A DNA stretch of 60,244 bases from Candidatus Cloacimonadota bacterium (GCA_003647765.1 QMNM01000001.1:1-60244), one strand, 5' to 3'. Positions 32,260-60,244 are shown, counted from the first letter of the stretch. Numbers and translations are program-made. Notes: generated by a model not told the origin, from the sequence alone.

Positions 32260-32288
32260 TTGACAAAATGATTTTTGTGTATTATTGT
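32260..32288 (+). promoter_or_regulatory. Sigma70-like promoter of the structural (rightward) operon.
   Basis: TTGACA, 17 nt, TATTGT, about 20 nt before the ATG at 32309. Confidence 0.6.
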
Positions 32289-32308
32289 TAAGGAAAAAGG
32301 AGGTGGGC

Positions 32309-32659
32309 ATGGAAGAAAAATTGCGGAATAAGTTGATTGACTGGTATTACAAAGAAGGGCTTTCTCCTGGAGAGATTGCGGACAAGATTGGGAGGAGCAG
32401 GTCTGCGGTTTATTTTTTGCTTCGCAAGTATGGTCTTCCATTGAGAGGAGATGAGAAGGGAAGGAAATTGTTATCTCCTGCCTGTCCGAAGTGTGGCTCT
32501 CATGAAGCGATTACGCTAGTGTCTGCGAATGGAGGGAGTGAAATTATCCGCTACCGAATTTGTAGAAAGTGCAAGTATAAGTTCAGAACAAAGGAGGTGA
32601 TAATTGGAAGGGCAGATAGCGATAGTGGAGACATGGTCTCCAGCAAACAGGACTCTTGA
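32309..32659 (+). CDS. HTH plus zinc-ribbon DNA-binding protein (candidate transcription regulator).
   Basis: GLSPGEIADKIGRSRSAVYFLLRKYG is the HTH. CPKCGS...CRKCKY is the ribbon. The start is the ATG at 32309 after AAAGGAGGTGGG. Confidence 0.6.
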   Translation: MEEKLRNKLIDWYYKEGLSPGEIADKIGRSRSAVYFLLRKYGLPLRGDEKGRKLLSPACPKCGSHEAITLVSANGGSEIIRYRICRKCKYKFRTKEVIIGRADSDSGDMVSSKQDS

Positions 32660-33059
32660 TATTACAGTGATAGCAGAGACTTTAGATGAGATTGTAGATA
32701 AAATTGGTTTAGTCAAGCATGGAGATGCGAGGATAATAACTTATGATCCCATCCCTTTACACCCCTTATTGGTGCAGTATGTAAAATTGCCTAAAAACGA
32801 AATAGAAGGAGGTTTGAGCGTTTTACAGCCATTAGAAGAATCTTACATTGCGATGGATTTTTGGACTGATGTTTATTACAGGCTTCTATTGGAAAAAAAG
32901 ATTGATAAATCTGTGCCTGAGTTTGTGTATGGGAACATTGTATTGAATTCTTGCAAGAAGTTTGATCCGAATGTTATAATAAGAGTGTTGGAAAGGAATT
33001 TCTTGGCATGGAAGACGAAGGTGAAGGTTTTTCGTTATACTGGAAATCCAGCGGATTGA
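32604..33059 (+). CDS. Hypothetical protein with a TTG start that overlaps the 3' end of the regulator gene.
   Basis: AAGGAGG lies 6 nt before the TTG at 32604. The TGA stop is part of a palindrome copy. Confidence 0.5.
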   Translation: MEGQIAIVETWSPANRTLDITVIAETLDEIVDKIGLVKHGDARIITYDPIPLHPLLVQYVKLPKNEIEGGLSVLQPLEESYIAMDFWTDVYYRLLLEKKIDKSVPEFVYGNIVLNSCKKFDPNVIIRVLERNFLAWKTKVKVFRYTGNPAD

Positions 33060-33070
33060 AAACGTTTTCA
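33057..33070. promoter_or_regulatory. Palindrome, perfect copy, upstream of the terL SD.
   Basis: Its TGA is the stop of 32604..33059. It ends 4 nt before GAGGAGGG. Confidence 0.95.
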
Positions 33071-33083
33071 CTAGAGGAGGGCG

Positions 33084-35966
33084 ATGGAGAGTTTCTCTAT
33101 AAACGAAGTTCCTTATAACTTCAATGATGTTCCTACCATTAAGAAGTTTTATCTTTCAAACAAGAAAATCAGGGCTATTGTAGGACCGTATGGTTGTTTT
33201 CCAGAATATTGTGAGTATTTGAGTTTTTCTGATGGAGAATATCGCTGGAAGAAGATCAAGGATTATCAAGAAGGGGAAAAGATTGCGGTTTATGATTTTG
33301 AGACAAAGGAGCTTCGGTTTGAGAAGCCTTTGGCTTATGTAAAGCTCCCTATGAATGATCTCTGGATTCATATTCGTGGCAGTAGATTTTTTGAAGCGAT
33401 AGTTTCTCCTGAACATGTCTTTCCCTATATTGTGTCTCATTCTGGGAAATATGGAGTGAAGTCCATTACTGAATTGATTAAGTGGGGGATTACGAATGCA
33501 AGGGTGGTTAATACTTTTCGCATTTGTGGGGAGACTTTTGGTTTAGATGAGTGGTTGGTCAGGTTTATAGCGATGCTTTCTGCTGATGGGCATAAGTGTT
33601 CTGATACCAGATGGCAGGTTTCTTTGAGGAGACGGAGGAAGATTGAGAGGTTGGAGTTTTTGTGCAGGAAGGTAGGAGTTCCTTATTCTCGTAAAGTTTA
33701 TGATTCCCGTCCTACTGAAAATGTTTTCATTTTAGATTTATCTTCTCATCCGCAACTTGCGGGGTTGACCAAGAAGTTTCCGAATTATTTTTACAATTTA
33801 TCTTCTGATTTACTTGATGTTTTAGTGGATGAGATTTTGTATTGGGACGGCTCATTTTACAATGGGAATGATAGGAGATATTTTACGACCATTAAGGAGA
33901 ATGCTGAATTTATCCAGTATGCTTCTCATGCAACGGGCAGGCGTGCTTCCGTTCTTAAAGTTTCGTATCCGAAAGATAATTGGAAGGATTGTTATATTGT
34001 TCATATTTCTGGGAAGGGGGTAAAGAAGACCTGTTTTATTGACAAGGATGCTCCTAAAGATAGGTCAATAAGGTATATTTCTCCGAAGGAAGGTGAATTT
34101 AAGTATTGTTTTACCACTTCAACAGGGTTTTTTCTTGTTAGGTTTAATGGAGCTGTTTATATTTCTGGGAATTCGGGCAAGTCATCTGGTTGTGTTATTA
34201 CTATGCTTCGTCATACTTGTGAGCAGATGCCAGATCCGCATGGGATAAGGAGAACTAGATGGGTTGTTGTTAGAAATTGTTATTCTGATGATACAGAGAT
34301 TCTGACAGAGAAGCGGGGCTGGGTATTGTTTAAAGATTTACTTCCTGATGATAAGGTGGCTCAATATAATCCTGCGACTGATAGATTGGAATTTGTAAAG
34401 CCGACTTATTATTATCGCTCCTATTATAGTGGAGATATGATTTGGGTTCATTCCAGTAGAAAGGAGCTTGATCTTCTTGTTACTCCAGATCATAGGCTTT
34501 ATGTTGCTGATTATAAAGATGGAAAGTGTGGGTCTTTTGATTTTAAAATGGCAAAGTTTTGTTATGGGAAGAAAGTTGCTTTTATTGGTTCTGATGGAGA
34601 GTTGATAGTTGCAGATGAATCTGATTGGGATATGGTAGCTTATAGTGGAATGGTTTATTGTGTAGAAGTTCCTACTCATATCATTTTGGTTTGCAGGAAT
34701 GGAAAACCAGTTCTTTGTTCCCAGACTTACAGACAGCTGAAGGACACAACCAAAAAGACAATAGACTACTGGTTGCGGTTTGCAGAATGGAGAGAATCAG
34801 AGTTTAAGTATATTCTCAAGTTCAGGTTGCAGGATAATACGATAGTGGAGTCTGAATGGCTTTTGAGAGCGTTGGACAGACCAGAGCATATTGCGAATTT
34901 ACTTTCTTTAGAGATAACGGGTGCGTGGTTGAATGAAGCAAGGGAGATTCCGAAGGAGATTTTTGATGCGATAGAAGGAAGATTGCGTTATCCTCCTACA
35001 ATAAGAGACAGAGATGGGAAAGTTTTATATGGTCCTACTTGGTTAGGGATTTTGTTAGACACGAACCCTCCTGATGAAGATCATTGGTTTTACAAGTATT
35101 TTGAAGAAAATAGACCAGAGAAAGCGGAGATTTTTCATCAGCCATCTGGTTTATCTCCTGAAGCGGAGAATATCAGGAATCTTCCTCCGAATTATTATCA
35201 GGATCTTTGTGTTGGCAAGGATCAGGATTGGATAGATGTTTATGTGCATGGGAAATATGGTTCTGTAAGGTCGGGCAAGCCTGTATTTTCTCTCTACAAT
35301 GATGAGATTCATTGTGCGAAAGAGCCGTTAGCTCCATTGATGGGATTTCCGTTGATAATTGGAATGGATTTTGGTTTAACTCCTGCTGCTGTGATTTTAC
35401 AGAAGCCTCCACGCAGGTTATTTGTTCTTGATGAAGTTGTAGCTGAAGAACCGATTGATGTAATTGAGTTTATTCGTTATATGCTTCTTCCTTTTATGGA
35501 GGAGAAGGAATTTTATCGGGGCAAGAATTTCATAATTGTGGGAGATCCAGCAGGTAAGGCAAGGTCGCAGGTTGATGGAAGGAGTGTATTTGAAGCGATA
35601 AATCAGTTAGGGTTGCGTGCTTATCCTGCCTATACGAACTCTTTACAAATCAGGTTAAATGCGGTAAATCAATATTTAACAAGATTGGATACTTTTGCTG
35701 GGGAGATGAAGCCAGCGTTTTTATTATCTCCTACTTGCAGGATGCTGAGGCAAGCCTTGAAAGGGAAGTATAGGATGAAAAGGGTAGCGACTGGGACAGA
35801 TATGTATTCTGATGTTCCTGTGAAGGACAAGTGGTCGCATGTTGCGGATGCGTTGCAATATGGAGCTTTAGGGTATAGGAAGCCGACTTTTAATGAAGAA
35901 TTTGATGAGTTTTCTAACATAGAAGGGCGGGGAGGACCAACGCATTTAGGAACAGGTATTTATTAA
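33084..35966 (+). CDS. terL: Terminase large subunit interrupted by two inteins. The spliced product would be about 485 aa.
   Basis: The split Walker A is IVGPYG / SGKSSG. VVVRN / TYRQLKDTT is also split. Walker B-like WLNEARE. Nuclease motifs IIGMDFGL, GDPAG and HVADALQY. Confidence 0.9.
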   Translation: MESFSINEVPYNFNDVPTIKKFYLSNKKIRAIVGPYGCFPEYCEYLSFSDGEYRWKKIKDYQEGEKIAVYDFETKELRFEKPLAYVKLPMNDLWIHIRGSRFFEAIVSPEHVFPYIVSHSGKYGVKSITELIKWGITNARVVNTFRICGETFGLDEWLVRFIAMLSADGHKCSDTRWQVSLRRRRKIERLEFLCRKVGVPYSRKVYDSRPTENVFILDLSSHPQLAGLTKKFPNYFYNLSSDLLDVLVDEILYWDGSFYNGNDRRYFTTIKENAEFIQYASHATGRRASVLKVSYPKDNWKDCYIVHISGKGVKKTCFIDKDAPKDRSIRYISPKEGEFKYCFTTSTGFFLVRFNGAVYISGNSGKSSGCVITMLRHTCEQMPDPHGIRRTRWVVVRNCYSDDTEILTEKRGWVLFKDLLPDDKVAQYNPATDRLEFVKPTYYYRSYYSGDMIWVHSSRKELDLLVTPDHRLYVADYKDGKCGSFDFKMAKFCYGKKVAFIGSDGELIVADESDWDMVAYSGMVYCVEVPTHIILVCRNGKPVLCSQTYRQLKDTTKKTIDYWLRFAEWRESEFKYILKFRLQDNTIVESEWLLRALDRPEHIANLLSLEITGAWLNEAREIPKEIFDAIEGRLRYPPTIRDRDGKVLYGPTWLGILLDTNPPDEDHWFYKYFEENRPEKAEIFHQPSGLSPEAENIRNLPPNYYQDLCVGKDQDWIDVYVHGKYGSVRSGKPVFSLYNDEIHCAKEPLAPLMGFPLIIGMDFGLTPAAVILQKPPRRLFVLDEVVAEEPIDVIEFIRYMLLPFMEEKEFYRGKNFIIVGDPAGKARSQVDGRSVFEAINQLGLRAYPAYTNSLQIRLNAVNQYLTRLDTFAGEMKPAFLLSPTCRMLRQALKGKYRMKRVATGTDMYSDVPVKDKWSHVADALQYGALGYRKPTFNEEFDEFSNIEGRGGPTHLGTGIY
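33195..34172 (+). mobile_element. Intein 1 (326 aa) with a LAGLIDADG homing-endonuclease domain, inserted in the terL P-loop.
   Basis: It starts with Cys38 (CFPEY...). Block B is VSPEH. The LAGLIDADG-like segments are FIAMLSADGH and VDEILYWDGSF. It ends ...VYISGN, followed by Ser. Confidence 0.85.
33716..33729. repeat. Palindrome variant (TG centre), inside the intein 1 endonuclease domain.
   Basis: Read as E-N-V-F. Confidence 0.9.
34278..34724 (+). mobile_element. Intein 2, a mini-intein of 149 aa, in terL.
   Basis: It starts CYSDDTEILTEKRGWVLFKDL. Block B is LVTPDHRLYV. Block F/G is VYCVEVPTHIILVCRNGKPVLCSQ, followed by Thr. Confidence 0.8.
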
Positions 35967-57083: not shown

Positions 57084-60000
57084 ATGGCAGAAAAGAAACA
57101 GGTTTTACCAACAATAGATGATCAATATGTAGAATTTCTTACTCGCAGGATGTTAGGGCTTCCTTTAACAGGACAGCTCAATTTACCTAAAGAGAAAGAT
57201 TTATTAAAGGTTCAGAGTCAAGGGCAGACAGCTTTACCTGTTTCAGTTCCGACGATGCAAGTTCCGCAAGCTCCTTCTGTTCCTATTCAGACACAGCAAG
57301 AAGAAGGCTGGCTTCCTGTTCTTGGTAAAGCGGTAGCCAGAGGATTAGCTACTCCTGTAATAGGTGCTACTGGAGCAATATCTGCTCTGGGAGAGCGGTT
57401 AGGTTTTGATACAAGTAAAATTCAGAAGTGGGCGAATGAGTTGTCTAACTTATTAGCTCCCAAAGTGGGTAAGAATAAAGCGAAGGCTTATGCTTATGGG
57501 ATTATAGATTCAACGATAAATAGTATTACTCAATTTCTCCTTTCAAGGTTTACCAGAGTTCCGCTTCTTCCTATGTTTGGTATTACTTCTGGTGGTGAAA
57601 AGTTCTTACAGGCAAGAGCGGAAGGGTATCCTTATGAGAAGGCAATAAAGACAGCTGTTCCTACTGGTTTATCTGAAGCTCTGACAGAGATGATTCCCTT
57701 CCACAGTCTTACAAAGACAATGAAGAAATCTATCATTAAGGGAGTTGTTGAGTTATTTGGTGGTGAGTTAGTGGGAGAGAATTTAAATACTATTGTTGAA
57801 AACATATCTGATCAGCTAGCTTTAGGTAAGCATAAGACTTGGAGTGAATTTTTACAGGATTTAGTGGACACAACTATTACCACATTAGGGCAGACTGCTC
57901 TTACTGCTGGATTGGGAGCGGGGGTTCACAGATTAGCACGAAGGGTAGAAAAGAAAGCAAAGGCAATAGAGCAACCTGCTCCTGAAGTTCCTCCACAACC
58001 ACAACCAGCTCCAGCAACATCTCCTTATGAATTACTAACTGCTTTACCACAGAAGCCAGAGCAGGTATCTGCGGGAGTAGCTTCTATATATGATAGGATT
58101 GCGGATAGGTTAGAAGGAAAACAGAAAGAAAGGGCAAGGAAACATGCTTCTGTATTGAGAGATATAAGTCAGAAGAAAGTTCCTGCTGTTGAAGATATAA
58201 AGGAAGTTAGGGAAGATATAAGTAAATCTGAAAGGTTGCCTAAATCTGTAAAGAATATTTTAGTAAAGCATTTAGATTCTCTGATTAAGCAGGCTGAAGA
58301 AAAGAAAAAGAAAGAGCTTATTCCTAAAGAAACCAAGCCAGAAGTTAAAGAAGAAAAGCCGAAACCAAAGGAAGAAAAGCCAAAGGAAGAAGTCAAAACA
58401 GAAGAAAAAATTGAAAACGTTTTCACTCAACCAGAAGAAGAAAAGTTGACTGATGAAGAAATAAAGATTTTGAAGGATAGAGGATTTACTGACAATCAGA
58501 TTAAGAAACTCCTTCCTGAAGAAGGGAGGAGGTTAATAAAAGAAAATCTTGCTCCTGAACAGGTAAGCGTTCTCCCTAATGGAAAGGTAAAAGTTATAGA
58601 GAAGAAGAAGGAAGTTTCTGTTCCTGAAAAAGAAGAAGCGAAGGAAAAAGAACCCTGGCAATTGACGAAGAAAGAATGGGAAAGTTTATTGGAGAAAGAT
58701 TTAACTCCAGAAGAAGCAAACAAATTCTTTCCTAAAAAGCGAATTGATAAATACAGAATTTATCACAAGAAGTATGGGGAGAAAGTTGTTCCTACATATA
58801 AGCGTATAGATAAAAAGACGAAGGGCACTTTTGAGATAAACAAGTATATTTTACAATCTGAACCTGATTTGATTGATGTAATTAGGAGATGGCATGTAGA
58901 GCAGGCTTTAAAGGAAGGTAAACCCGTTCCTGAAGAAGTTTTGAAGGAATTTCCTGATTTAGTAAAAGAAGAAAAGAAACCAGAAAAAACCAAACCTTTA
59001 TTTGAAGGAGTAGATAATTATCGTCTTACTTCTAAAGGACATGAGTTAAGGGTTGTAAGGGCAGGAGAAGCACTTTCTCATCCTGATAGGAAAGGGACTT
59101 GGTTTGTTGTTGAAAAATATAAAGGGCAGATTCCTCCGTATGCAACTTCTCCTATAACAAAAGGTGGAGTTGCTGGTGTTGGTGGAAAAGAGATATGGAG
59201 GACTTCTGTTACTTTGCGTAATCCTTATTTGTTTGAGATTCCTGAAGATATAAAGAGTGAAGGAGAGATTCCTTTAGCTCTCTATAAGGAAGTTACAGGG
59301 AAAGAGCCTCCAAAGAGAGGATTAAAAGGAAAGAATGCAGAAAAAAGGTTTGCGAAATTAGAAAGTGAGATAGCGGATACTTTAAGAAAGAAAGGTTATG
59401 ATGGAGTAATTCTTTATCAGAGAGTTGGGGAGAATACTTATCCCGACCAAGTATTTGTTTTTAGGGATACAGAGGCTCATAAAGAGTTGGAGAAAAGTTT
59501 AGAGAAGAAATCAGAAGCGAAAGAGAAAGAGACCAAGAAAGAACTTATCCCTGCTGAAAAGAAGGAACAGAAGAAGGAAACCAAGCAAGAGCTTATTCCT
59601 ACTGAAGAAAAGAAGGAAAAGAAAGAACAGAAGAAGAAGGAACTTATCCCTTCTGCTGAAGAAGTAAAGAAAGCGAAACCTGTTTCTAAAATTTCTTTTG
59701 AATATGGAAAGACCAAGAGTCAGATGAAAGTAAGGCATGAGGTTTATGGAGAGTTGCCTTTCTTTATAAAGAGAGGGTTTAAAGGCTGGAAATTATATGG
59801 AGAGAGAGCTGTAAAGTTAAAGAATGGCAGGGTTGTTATTGTTCGTCAATTAAGGGCACAGGGATTAAAATCTGTTGAAGATGTTAGGAAGAAGATTCAG
59901 TCTTTTATTGATGAAGGTGAGCCTGTAATTATAGCTGATAAGGATGTATTGAAAGAGCGTCCGCTGGAGGATATAAGCGGGAAGGTAATCAGACCTGAAG

Positions 60001-60244
60001 ATATAGATTTGAAGGAATTAAAGAAGGTTGCTGTTTTTAAGGAGATAGGGAAGAAGGCAAAGCAGGAATCTGCGGAGATTAGGGAAAGGGTAGATGAAGT
60101 TGAGGAGATTCTTTCTGAAGTAGAGAAAAGAGAAGAAGATATATTGAAGTGGCTGGATGATAACACTGAATCCTTACCTGAAGATTCTTTTCATCCTGAA
60201 CTTATACCTGATTATACTCCGATTCCTTCCAAGCCTGTTTTGAA
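57084..60244 (+). CDS. Giant virion/ejection, polyvalent-like protein, N-terminal part. It runs off the window end and continues at base 1.
   Basis: The ATG at 57084 follows TAGGAG. I translated the whole stretch by hand and found no stop. It is absent from the ORF track because it has no stop inside the window. Confidence 0.8.
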   Translation, partial: MAEKKQVLPTIDDQYVEFLTRRMLGLPLTGQLNLPKEKDLLKVQSQGQTALPVSVPTMQVPQAPSVPIQTQQEEGWLPVLGKAVARGLATPVIGATGAISALGERLGFDTSKIQKWANELSNLLAPKVGKNKAKAYAYGIIDSTINSITQFLLSRFTRVPLLPMFGITSGGEKFLQARAEGYPYEKAIKTAVPTGLSEALTEMIPFHSLTKTMKKSIIKGVVELFGGELVGENLNTIVENISDQLALGKHKTWSEFLQDLVDTTITTLGQTALTAGLGAGVHRLARRVEKKAKAIEQPAPEVPPQPQPAPATSPYELLTALPQKPEQVSAGVASIYDRIADRLEGKQKERARKHASVLRDISQKKVPAVEDIKEVREDISKSERLPKSVKNILVKHLDSLIKQAEEKKKKELIPKETKPEVKEEKPKPKEEKPKEEVKTEEKIENVFTQPEEEKLTDEEIKILKDRGFTDNQIKKLLPEEGRRLIKENLAPEQVSVLPNGKVKVIEKKKEVSVPEKEEAKEKEPWQLTKKEWESLLEKDLTPEEANKFFPKKRIDKYRIYHKKYGEKVVPTYKRIDKKTKGTFEINKYILQSEPDLIDVIRRWHVEQALKEGKPVPEEVLKEFPDLVKEEKKPEKTKPLFEGVDNYRLTSKGHELRVVRAGEALSHPDRKGTWFVVEKYKGQIPPYATSPITKGGVAGVGGKEIWRTSVTLRNPYLFEIPEDIKSEGEIPLALYKEVTGKEPPKRGLKGKNAEKRFAKLESEIADTLRKKGYDGVILYQRVGENTYPDQVFVFRDTEAHKELEKSLEKKSEAKEKETKKELIPAEKKEQKKETKQELIPTEEKKEKKEQKKKELIPSAEEVKKAKPVSKISFEYGKTKSQMKVRHEVYGELPFFIKRGFKGWKLYGERAVKLKNGRVVIVRQLRAQGLKSVEDVRKKIQSFIDEGEPVIIADKDVLKERPLEDISGKVIRPEDIDLKELKKVAVFKEIGKKAKQESAEIRERVDEVEEILSEVEKREEDILKWLDDNTESLPEDSFHPELIPDYTPIPSKPVL
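58412..58425. repeat. Palindrome, perfect copy, inside the giant ORF.
   Basis: Read as E-N-V-F. Confidence 0.95.
60122..60244. repeat. Terminal direct repeat copy B, identical to 1-123.
   Basis: Same 123 bases as the window start, and in the same reading frame as the giant ORF. Confidence 0.95.

Follow-up and report, generated by a model that had tools for sequence, protein, structure and literature searches.

The large terminase gene (terL) in a 60,244-nucleotide stretch of DNA from Candidatus Cloacimonadota bacterium (GCA_003647765.1, QMNM01000001.1:1-60244; hereinafter the window, meaning this whole stretch) very probably contains, at nucleotides 33195-34172, a genuine, functional and mobile intein, which we term intein 1. 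It interrupts the Walker A P-loop of the terminase, and a second, smaller intein (intein 2) lies further downstream in the same reading frame (Table 1). The precursor reads ...IRAIVGPYG up to Gly37, followed by Cys38; residues 38-363 end in ...AVYISGN, ahead of Ser364 in SGKSSGCVIT, and the joined flanks read GPYGSGKS, a canonical Walker A sequence. Excision, intein-less alleles, fold, family membership and selection all agree on this identification. They bear out the initial annotation of the region, made from the sequence alone, in its central claim of a LAGLIDADG intein placed exactly in the TerL Walker A loop, and likewise in its proposals that removal of aa 38-363 restores the P-loop, that the spliced protein has 485 residues, and that CFPEY.. 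represents block A, VSPEH block B, SADG and YWDG the ends of the two LAGLIDADG helices, and ISGN/S block G (slashes mark splice junctions throughout). Homing-endonuclease inteins in the Walker A motif of TerL and other ATPases are an already known and well-documented kind of element (PMC5050341, PMC4760082, PMC2807308), and for published P-loop examples both splicing and cleavage of alleles without the intein have been demonstrated (Kelley et al., 2016, PMC5050341; Novikova et al., 2016, PMC4760082). What is new here is a link to the recombination directionality factor (RDF) intein of mycobacteriophage Bethlehem, independent replacements of Cys1 by Pro1 within the family, an analysis of selection, and population-level data on presence and absence of the element.

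With both inserts removed, TerL has 485 residues and a mass of 56.1 kDa (1458 nt of joined extein sequence), matches the Pfam families Terminase_3 (E 6.6e-9) and Terminase_6N, and aligns in one piece over ~92% with phage TerLs in tblastn searches, the best cultured-phage match being the terminase of Vibrio phage VA-RY-3 (46% identity, E 7e-113). The spliced protein combines the N-terminal P-loop ATPase and C-terminal RNase H-like nuclease of a large terminase, and the gene next to terL matches portal/adaptor PHROGs; the window is otherwise the intact genome of an uncultured phage, with terL as its sole large terminase. A natural 485-residue TerL without either insert (P0151, from a metagenomic protein collection) shares 96% identity with the joined window sequence across 100% of the latter, and its gene (locus L005) has the same 1458-nt length as the joined window flanks, at 91.7% DNA identity. 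As the initial annotation had anticipated for intein-less alleles, four phage TerLs (Vibrio VA-RY-3, Cronobacter Ss1, Burkholderia E332 and Pelagibacter Hodr) align across the insert with a clean gap at the junction, GPxG/SGK[ST]. Nine sequencing runs, among them hydrothermal-vent, marine-sediment and marine metagenomes, are listed for the stretch, and contigs from four DNA runs (one labelled hydrothermal vent, three unlabelled) were compared with the region. Two of these four runs contain contigs that jump from 33193 to 34172 (978 nt, with a 2-nt boundary ambiguity) beside intein-bearing contigs, and one 4.75-kb contig in another run jumps both inteins; the empty site 1 is therefore present as DNA in the same communities.

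An AlphaFold2 model of intein 1, built with 21 relatives, has a mean predicted local distance difference test score (pLDDT) of 89.3 and a predicted template-modelling score (pTM) of 0.88. It has the Hint fold: its top PDB matches in Foldseek are the TliVMA, PI-PfuI, PhoVMA, PI-SceI and PI-TkoII inteins (E 3e-14 to 4e-7, template-modelling score ~0.6). The central domain best matches I-DmoI (E 2e-5), I-Tsp061I and the WhiA LAGLIDADG domains (E ~2e-5 to 3e-4), and shows the alpha-beta-beta-alpha-beta-beta-alpha pseudo-dimer of this class, with two helices that each end in an acidic residue followed by Gly. Of the hallmark residues of inteins, the insert has the position-1 nucleophile (Cys38), the C-terminal Asn363, the +1 residue Ser364 and block B (S71-P-E-H74); at the penultimate position, where His is common though not obligatory, it has Gly325 (G:6). 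The register of block F was checked in a mini-intein of a relative, whose KYCFTVP aligns with AYDLTVP of the TFIIB mini-intein (5o9j), and the Cys at F:4 therefore sits at the usual Asp F:4 position.

We infer from these features that terL mRNA would yield a 111-kDa precursor with its Walker A motif divided into GPYG and SGKS, which could not bind ATP because the loop is split. Intein 1 would fold as a Hint domain, excise itself and ligate Gly37 to Ser364 to give GPYGSGKS, and excision of both inteins would release the 56-kDa terminase. The LAGLIDADG domain would serve as a homing endonuclease that cuts intein-less terL at the P-loop-coding site during co-infection, whereupon repair would copy the intein in. 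A gene of this kind would be annotated as a 960-residue oddity or a broken gene, when it actually encodes a normal 485-residue terminase together with two selfish protein elements, the larger of which, intein 1, standard domain libraries overlook.

The intein 1 family and its characterized relatives

An exhaustive HMMER search over 1.84 billion cluster representatives (clusters at 50% identity) recovered at least 2,289 representatives of the intein 1 family at E<=1e-3, 931 of them at E<=1e-10; so many homologous representatives mean that the insert did not arise by chance, and among the matches listed every one lies inside a larger protein. A word-indexed protein search limited to the intein region returned 6 proteins only. 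Conservation was counted in the best 146 of the 2,289 family members, excised and aligned. The residue before the intein (position -1) is Gly in 127/146, and position 1 is Cys in 142 and Pro in 2; B:7 is Ser or Thr in 136 and B:10 His in 145. The first LAGLIDADG Asp (Asp131) is invariant and the second (Asp218) is kept in 144/146. Cys occupies F:4 in 144 members, Thr (119) or Ser (27) occupies G:5 in all 146, Gly is found at G:6 in 141 and Asn at G:7 in 145, while the +1 residue is Ser (89), Cys (33) or Thr (23) in 145/146. The window intein has every one of these conserved residues (Cys1, Ser71, His74, Asp131, Asp218, Cys305, Ser324, Gly325, Asn326 and Ser+1), and its predicted active site, made up of His74, Cys305, Ser324, Gly325, Asn326 and Ser+1, is of the type found in the Bethlehem RDF and AceL NrdHF inteins.

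Most members share the location as well as the motifs: 101/146 are inserted at G/[STC]GK[ST] and 17 at variant P-loops, with the remainder at other sites where Gly is followed by Ser, Cys or Thr, such as VDIG/CGM in RtcB and GGGIG/TSW in ribonucleotide reductase. Pfam searches with 56 hosts identified terminases, SNF2, DEAD, RecD-like and DnaB/primase helicases, a clamp-loader subunit, family A DNA polymerase (PolA), ribonucleotide reductase and RtcB, whereas among 56 relatives the Intein_splicing profile was detected in 3 and LAGLIDADG_3 in 13. Family members occur in 124 records of cultured phages. A PHROG annotated as PhoH-like matches intein 1 (E 8e-22, profile positions 86-405), which indicates that this PHROG represents a PhoH family bearing an intein. 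Within the window, the family hidden Markov model (HMM) matches terL only, namely intein 1 and the N-terminal half of intein 2.

Among characterized inteins, the family HMM matches the Bethlehem RDF intein (E 3e-18), which is gp51 of Kelley et al., 2016 (PMC5050341) and the gp52 'phosphoesterase' of AY500153. The two share Cys1, Cys at F:4 (in VWCLRV in the Bethlehem sequence, which ends LTGN/S), a penultimate Gly, Ser at +1, a LAGLIDADG insert and a phage-borne setting. The Bethlehem RDF intein splices completely, its endonuclease is toxic in E. coli, and the G316H substitution slows splicing markedly (PMC5050341). It differs from intein 1 in its host, a recombination directionality factor (phosphoesterase), in its site (HEGNHD/C...N/SRA, not a P-loop), in its low sequence identity and in its more degenerate first LAGLIDADG motif. 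The closest solved structure by sequence is the AceL NrdHF split intein (PDB 6ZGQ), which the family profile matches at E 9e-11; a single-sequence mini-intein query from a relative did not retrieve 6zgq, and the family profile alone did. AceL NrdHF has been proven to follow the class 3 mechanism, acting via Cys124 with a Met-Cys-Thr triplet (Hoffmann et al., 2020, PMC7891396); it ends in T144-G145-N146/Ser, is without the F:13 and G:6 His, and loses all activity in the G145H mutant (PMC7891396). It comes from a phage-like metagenome contig and has in common with intein 1 the Ser at B:7, His at B:10, a hydrophobic residue other than Trp at B:12, Cys at F:4, the Gly-Asn/Ser ending and the lack of His at both F:13 and G:6. 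Unlike intein 1, it is naturally split, has no endonuclease, resides in ribonucleotide reductase, lacks Cys1, has Thr where the window intein has Ser at G:5, and has Arg at B:11 in place of Val; this Arg compensates for the absent penultimate His by helping Asn cyclisation (PMC7891396).

The published terminase inteins of mycobacteriophages occupy different sub-sites of the P-loop: TerL1-a separates the invariant Lys and Thr (GK/T) and TerL1-b lies one residue away, whereas the intein 1 site (G/SGKS) is three residues upstream of the GK/S position; the window terminase family (Terminase_3-like, of the Vibrio VA-RY-3 / BcepC6B type) also differs from the mycobacteriophage TerL1 hosts. At the same sub-site as intein 1, a family member is found in TerL of the cultured Escherichia phage 19-1-2 and its relatives (OK181858; Vequintavirinae), with the sequence IIGGAAG/CLSKD...KYCFVTQTGFFVTRLEDCVVVTGN/SGKS and the intein ending VVTGN/SGKS; it is ~30% identical to intein 1, sits in another terminase family and is annotated merely as terminase large subunit. 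In phage 19-1-2 (L008:2372-5948), terL is annotated as three 'terminase large subunit' coding sequences with an HNH homing endonuclease gene between, and the first terL piece holds the unannotated family intein in its P-loop.

Several observations weigh against the reading of the insert as a functional and mobile intein. Block A of intein 1 departs from the family consensus C[VL][DS]xDTE[FY]L, its CFPEYCEY having Cys in place of the family Thr, and is followed by a 4-residue insertion (GEYR, aa 14-17) common to the closest alleles only. B:11 is Val75, where the family mostly has Arg, and the branch of the window clade in a maximum-likelihood tree is long (1.03 substitutions per site). The match to curated intein HMMs that had been expected did not materialize, in that intein 1 hits none of the Pfam (among them Intein_splicing/Hint) or NCBIfam (among them intein_Nterm/Cterm) profiles at E<=1. 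A single-sequence PDB search with intein 1 likewise gave nothing significant; we attribute these nulls to poor profile coverage of the family and do not count them as evidence against an intein. Finally, the empty locus L005 differs from the window at ~10/24 bases around site 1 (window 33171-33194 + 34173-34184 compared with L005:451-486), including the Ser codon (TCG vs AGT, two steps), the clustered differences being synonymous; DNA identity is 0.82-0.83 over both intein sites against 0.88-0.98 across most other parts of terL, and L005 may therefore not be a substrate of the intein 1 endonuclease. Co-conversion tracts or endonuclease-resistant target variants would account for this clustering.

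That standard intein profiles miss intein 1, that the penultimate His is absent and that block A is atypical in the window clade would also suit an insert that is not excised, either an intein that has decayed or an inserted domain that stays in the protein; terL would then be a pseudogene or a large terminase of unusual form. We regard this as very improbable: a Walker A motif with 326 residues inserted cannot bind ATP, all splice-junction residues are conserved, purifying selection is strong (see below), the genome is otherwise that of an intact phage for which this is the only large terminase, and splicing has been demonstrated experimentally for family members that end in the same way. The penultimate Gly had been singled out in the initial annotation as departing from the usual His; Gly325 is indeed there, but far from being unusual it is the norm in this family, and since Gly at G:6 is both this prevalent and native in two studied relatives (PMC5050341, PMC7891396), it is a family trait and no defect.

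The first step of splicing and the two conserved cysteines

For the first chemical step of intein 1 we give about an even chance to the class 1 route, in which Cys1 would undergo the N-S acyl shift with Cys305 as an essential helper; the retention of Cys1 in 97% of the sampled relatives is evidence for it. Somewhat less probable is a class 3 route, in which Cys305 (F:4) would attack the Gly37 carbonyl and the branched thioester would be passed to Ser+1, Cys1 being dispensable. The near-invariant Cys at F:4 (144/146) and Thr/Ser at G:5 (146/146) make up, with His B:10, the class 3 catalytic triad (PMC7664689), and the closest solved relative, AceL NrdHF, is of proven class 3 with its TGN/S ending and no F:13 or G:6 His. 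Moreover, three TerL-resident family members (P0172, P0020 and P0029) begin with Pro in place of Cys, with every other motif intact. In the maximum-likelihood tree, P0172 and P0196, the latter of which has Cys1, form a sister pair (99% support), and P0020 and P0029 lie elsewhere; from these scattered places it follows that Cys1 was replaced at least twice. The P0172 sequence is identical in three independent assemblies, and its Pro codon, CCT (L009:4103-4105), is two changes from a Cys codon. Pro1 is found also in the prototype class 3 intein, that of Bethlehem DnaB, and most class 3 inteins reside in P-loops (PMC2807308). If the Pro1 terminases are functional, the family active site can splice without Cys1, which argues against both cysteines being strictly obligatory.

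On the other side, the presence of Cys1 in 142/146 members would be unexpected if it were dispensable, and the related RDF intein is placed in class 1 by Kelley et al. The canonical class 3 inteins with the Trp-Cys-Thr (WCT) triplet (Bethlehem DnaB, Msm and Mch DnaB-1) resemble the intein 1 family in having Cys at F:4 and Thr or Ser at G:5, in their P-loop sites, helicase and terminase hosts and phage association, and in the Pro1 of some family members; intein 1 itself departs from them by the presence of Cys1 and by Gly instead of His at G:6, and it also lacks the Trp at B:12, a position that is Phe76 in the window and V/M/I/F in the family. In the window the triplet reads Phe76 at B:12, Cys305 at F:4 and Ser324 at G:5, the last being Ser and not Thr, as compared with Met-Cys-Thr in the class 3 AceL NrdHF. 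Class 3 inteins are further marked by having no Cys, Ser or Thr at position 1, where the window has Cys; inteins that combine an N-terminal nucleophile with the WCT triplet accounted for 3/37 in Tori et al., 2010 (PMC2807308). A first step by some other route is improbable.

These data also raise the possibility, which we consider rather doubtful, that the family forms a very large, mostly phage- and metagenome-borne clade, missed by standard profiles, that joins Cys1 to a class 3 site of the AceL NrdHF type (His at B:10, Cys at F:4, Thr or Ser at G:5, an obligatory Gly at G:6 and no His at F:13) and would thus naturally connect class 1 with class 3. As Cys1 has given way to Pro at least twice among the TerL members, such a clade would already be class 3-competent. 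Beyer et al., 2020 held that a transition from class 1 to class 3 could not occur by divergence. With its pair of conserved cysteines and its obligatory penultimate Gly, the family bears on the origin of class 3 and on the engineering of His-free splicing domains. Beside the P0172 terL, we observed a 997-residue portal gene product (L009:6388-9381) that matches Pfam Intein_splicing and LAGLIDADG_3; in this phage, therefore, terL and the adjacent portal gene each harbour an intein.

Endonuclease, allelic states and residence time

Ratios of nonsynonymous to synonymous substitution rates (dN/dS) were computed between the window and the allele at L006, whose intein is 93% identical (dS ~0.4 throughout). 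They are 0.05 for the exteins and 0.078 for intein 1 as a whole, the latter comprising 0.059 for the endonuclease domain, 0.139 for the N-terminal Hint part and 0.022 for the C-terminal Hint part; purifying selection therefore acts on the splicing and endonuclease parts about as strongly as on the terminase. Intein 1 is probably both mobile and active. An intein that splices with a dead or domesticated endonuclease, and that would persist as a fixed passenger or a conditional packaging switch rather than as a mobile element, is unlikely. Such a fate would be in keeping with the neighbouring intein 2, already without an endonuclease in the window genome, with the strongly diverged empty-allele sequence around site 1, and with the regulatory roles proposed for P-loop inteins (PMC4760082). 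Nevertheless, both LAGLIDADG Asp residues and the conserved Lys, Arg and Gln positions are intact, the dN/dS of the domain is as low as that of the exteins, filled and empty alleles occur together in the same samples, and the related RDF intein has an endonuclease toxic in E. coli.

Several combinations of the two inteins were recovered. The 1136-residue allele P0271 (L006) has both, with intein 2 at full length and with its LAGLIDADG domain, while the window and P0001 have both with intein 2 in its mini form. Intein 2 occurs alone, at full length in P0155 and P0156 and as a mini-intein in P0157, and intein 1 alone in P0172, P0177 and P0196, in TerLs ~50% identical. The intein 2 junctions read VVVRN/CYSDD...VLCSQ/TYRQLKDTT. 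P0271 (L006:1365-2339), P0155 and P0156 carry at the same RN/TY site a 325-residue intein 2 with two LAGLIDADG motifs, and the window has 220 nt where these long alleles have ~748 nt; by this comparison the window intein 2 is an endonuclease-deleted derivative. Its F:4 residue is likewise Cys (VYCVEV), and the intein 1 family HMM recognizes its N-terminal half with an E value of 2e-14. One phage population thus offers a natural series of empty, intein 1-only, full-length or endonuclease-deleted intein 2, and doubly occupied alleles, which is useful for the study of the homing cycle.

The initial annotation had also described a copy of a genome-wide palindrome at 33716 and viewed the intein as a long-term, ameliorated resident. 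The palindrome in question, the 14-bp TGAAAACGTTTTCA, has 16 exact copies in the window, within which all 16 AACGTT sites of the window fall. Eight further copies (one-mismatch 12-mer cores) differ only by a change of the central CG to TG or CA, giving 24 sites in total that span 6551-58425; this pattern is as expected from deamination of methylated CpG, or may reflect a single binding site that tolerates both forms. Start codons, including that of terL, follow several of the perfect copies at a distance of 6-27 nt; the terL copy is retained in L005 and L006. The variant within intein 1, TGAAAATGTTTTCA, overlies the T-E-N-V-F codons of the conserved RPTENVF motif (RPTE..F) and is identical in L006. 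In related alleles from the four metagenome runs, C at 33722 makes the palindrome perfect through a synonymous change of AAT to AAC, and the intein lineage therefore does carry the motif of the phage. The claim thus holds to the extent that a variant of the motif is at this place and is perfect in related alleles, although the window copy itself matches at only 13/14 positions. We rejected a HIP1-type or other common palindrome at 33716, TGAAAACGTTTTCA being the only over-represented long palindrome; likewise, the conservation of TGAAAATGTTTTCA in L006 was rejected as a sign of function, its identity over ~5 synonymous sites at dS ~0.4 being not significant.

A foreign composition of intein 1 was also rejected, its codon-usage score ranking at the 48th percentile among 27 segments of equal size from window genes. 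GC content at third codon positions (GC3) is 0.36 for intein 1, beside 0.38 for the C-extein. By codon usage and GC3, intein 1 is therefore compositionally at home. This genome-typical codon usage hints at the long-term, ameliorated residence proposed at the outset; against it stand the imperfection of the palindrome, its overlap with a protein motif, and the polymorphism of the intein in the same samples. The coexistence of filled and empty alleles, together with the diverged DNA at site 1, fits an ongoing homing cycle (with co-conversion or target-site escape) as well as it fits long residence.

The terL locus and other features of the window

Table 1. Features of the terL gene and its inteins, in window coordinates
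Feature	Position	Strand	Description
Perfect TGAAAACGTTTTCA copy	33057-33070	.	14 nt before the terL start codon
terL ribosome-binding site	33074-33080		GAGGAGG
terL precursor open reading frame	33084-35966	+	960 aa, 111.4 kDa, two inteins inside
N-extein	33084-33194	+	aa 1-37; C-terminal end is the first Walker A half, GPYG (33183-33194)
Intein 1	33195-34172	+	326 aa, 38.2 kDa, Cys1 to Asn326; Hint domain with inserted LAGLIDADG homing endonuclease domain
Block A	33195-33233	+	CFPEYCEYLSFSD; Cys1 present
Block B	33396-33428	+	AIVSPEHVFPY; Ser71 (B:7), His74 (B:10), Val75 (B:11), Phe76 (B:12)
LAGLIDADG endonuclease domain	33510-34079	+	~aa 106-295
LAGLIDADG helix 1	33549-33593	+	...FIAMLSADG, Asp131; helix 119-131 in the model
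Palindrome variant in intein 1	33716-33729	.	TGAAAATGTTTTCA; 13/14 match to TGAAAACGTTTTCA, central CG to TG
LAGLIDADG helix 2	33804-33854	+	...VDEILYWDG, Asp218; helix 204-218 in the model
Block F	34095-34142	+	EFKYCFTTSTGFFLVR; Cys305 (F:4), no F:13 His, Arg316 kept in 144/146
Block G	34152-34175	+	AVYISGN/S; Ser324 (G:5), Gly325 (G:6), Asn326 (G:7), Ser+1
Middle extein	34173-34277	+	aa 364-398; begins with SGKS (34173-34184, second Walker A half), ends ...RWVVVRN
Intein 2	34278-34724	+	149-aa mini-intein, CYSDD...VLCSQ/T
C-extein	34725-35966	+	TYRQLKDTT... to the stop codon; remaining ATPase domain and TerL nuclease domain

Upstream of terL, nucleotides 32285-32659 of the window encode a small protein with a helix-turn-helix-like N-terminal region and a C-terminal CxxC...CxxC zinc ribbon; it has weak PHROG matches to HNH or DNA-binding proteins and is a candidate small terminase or regulator. 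Bases 1-123 of the window are identical to its last 123 (60122-60244), which resembles an assembly overlap, and the contig therefore either closes to a circle or represents a terminally redundant genome, of ~60,121 bp. An open reading frame starting at 57084 crosses this junction in frame to 5302, encoding, with the repeat counted once, a giant protein of ~2,780 residues.

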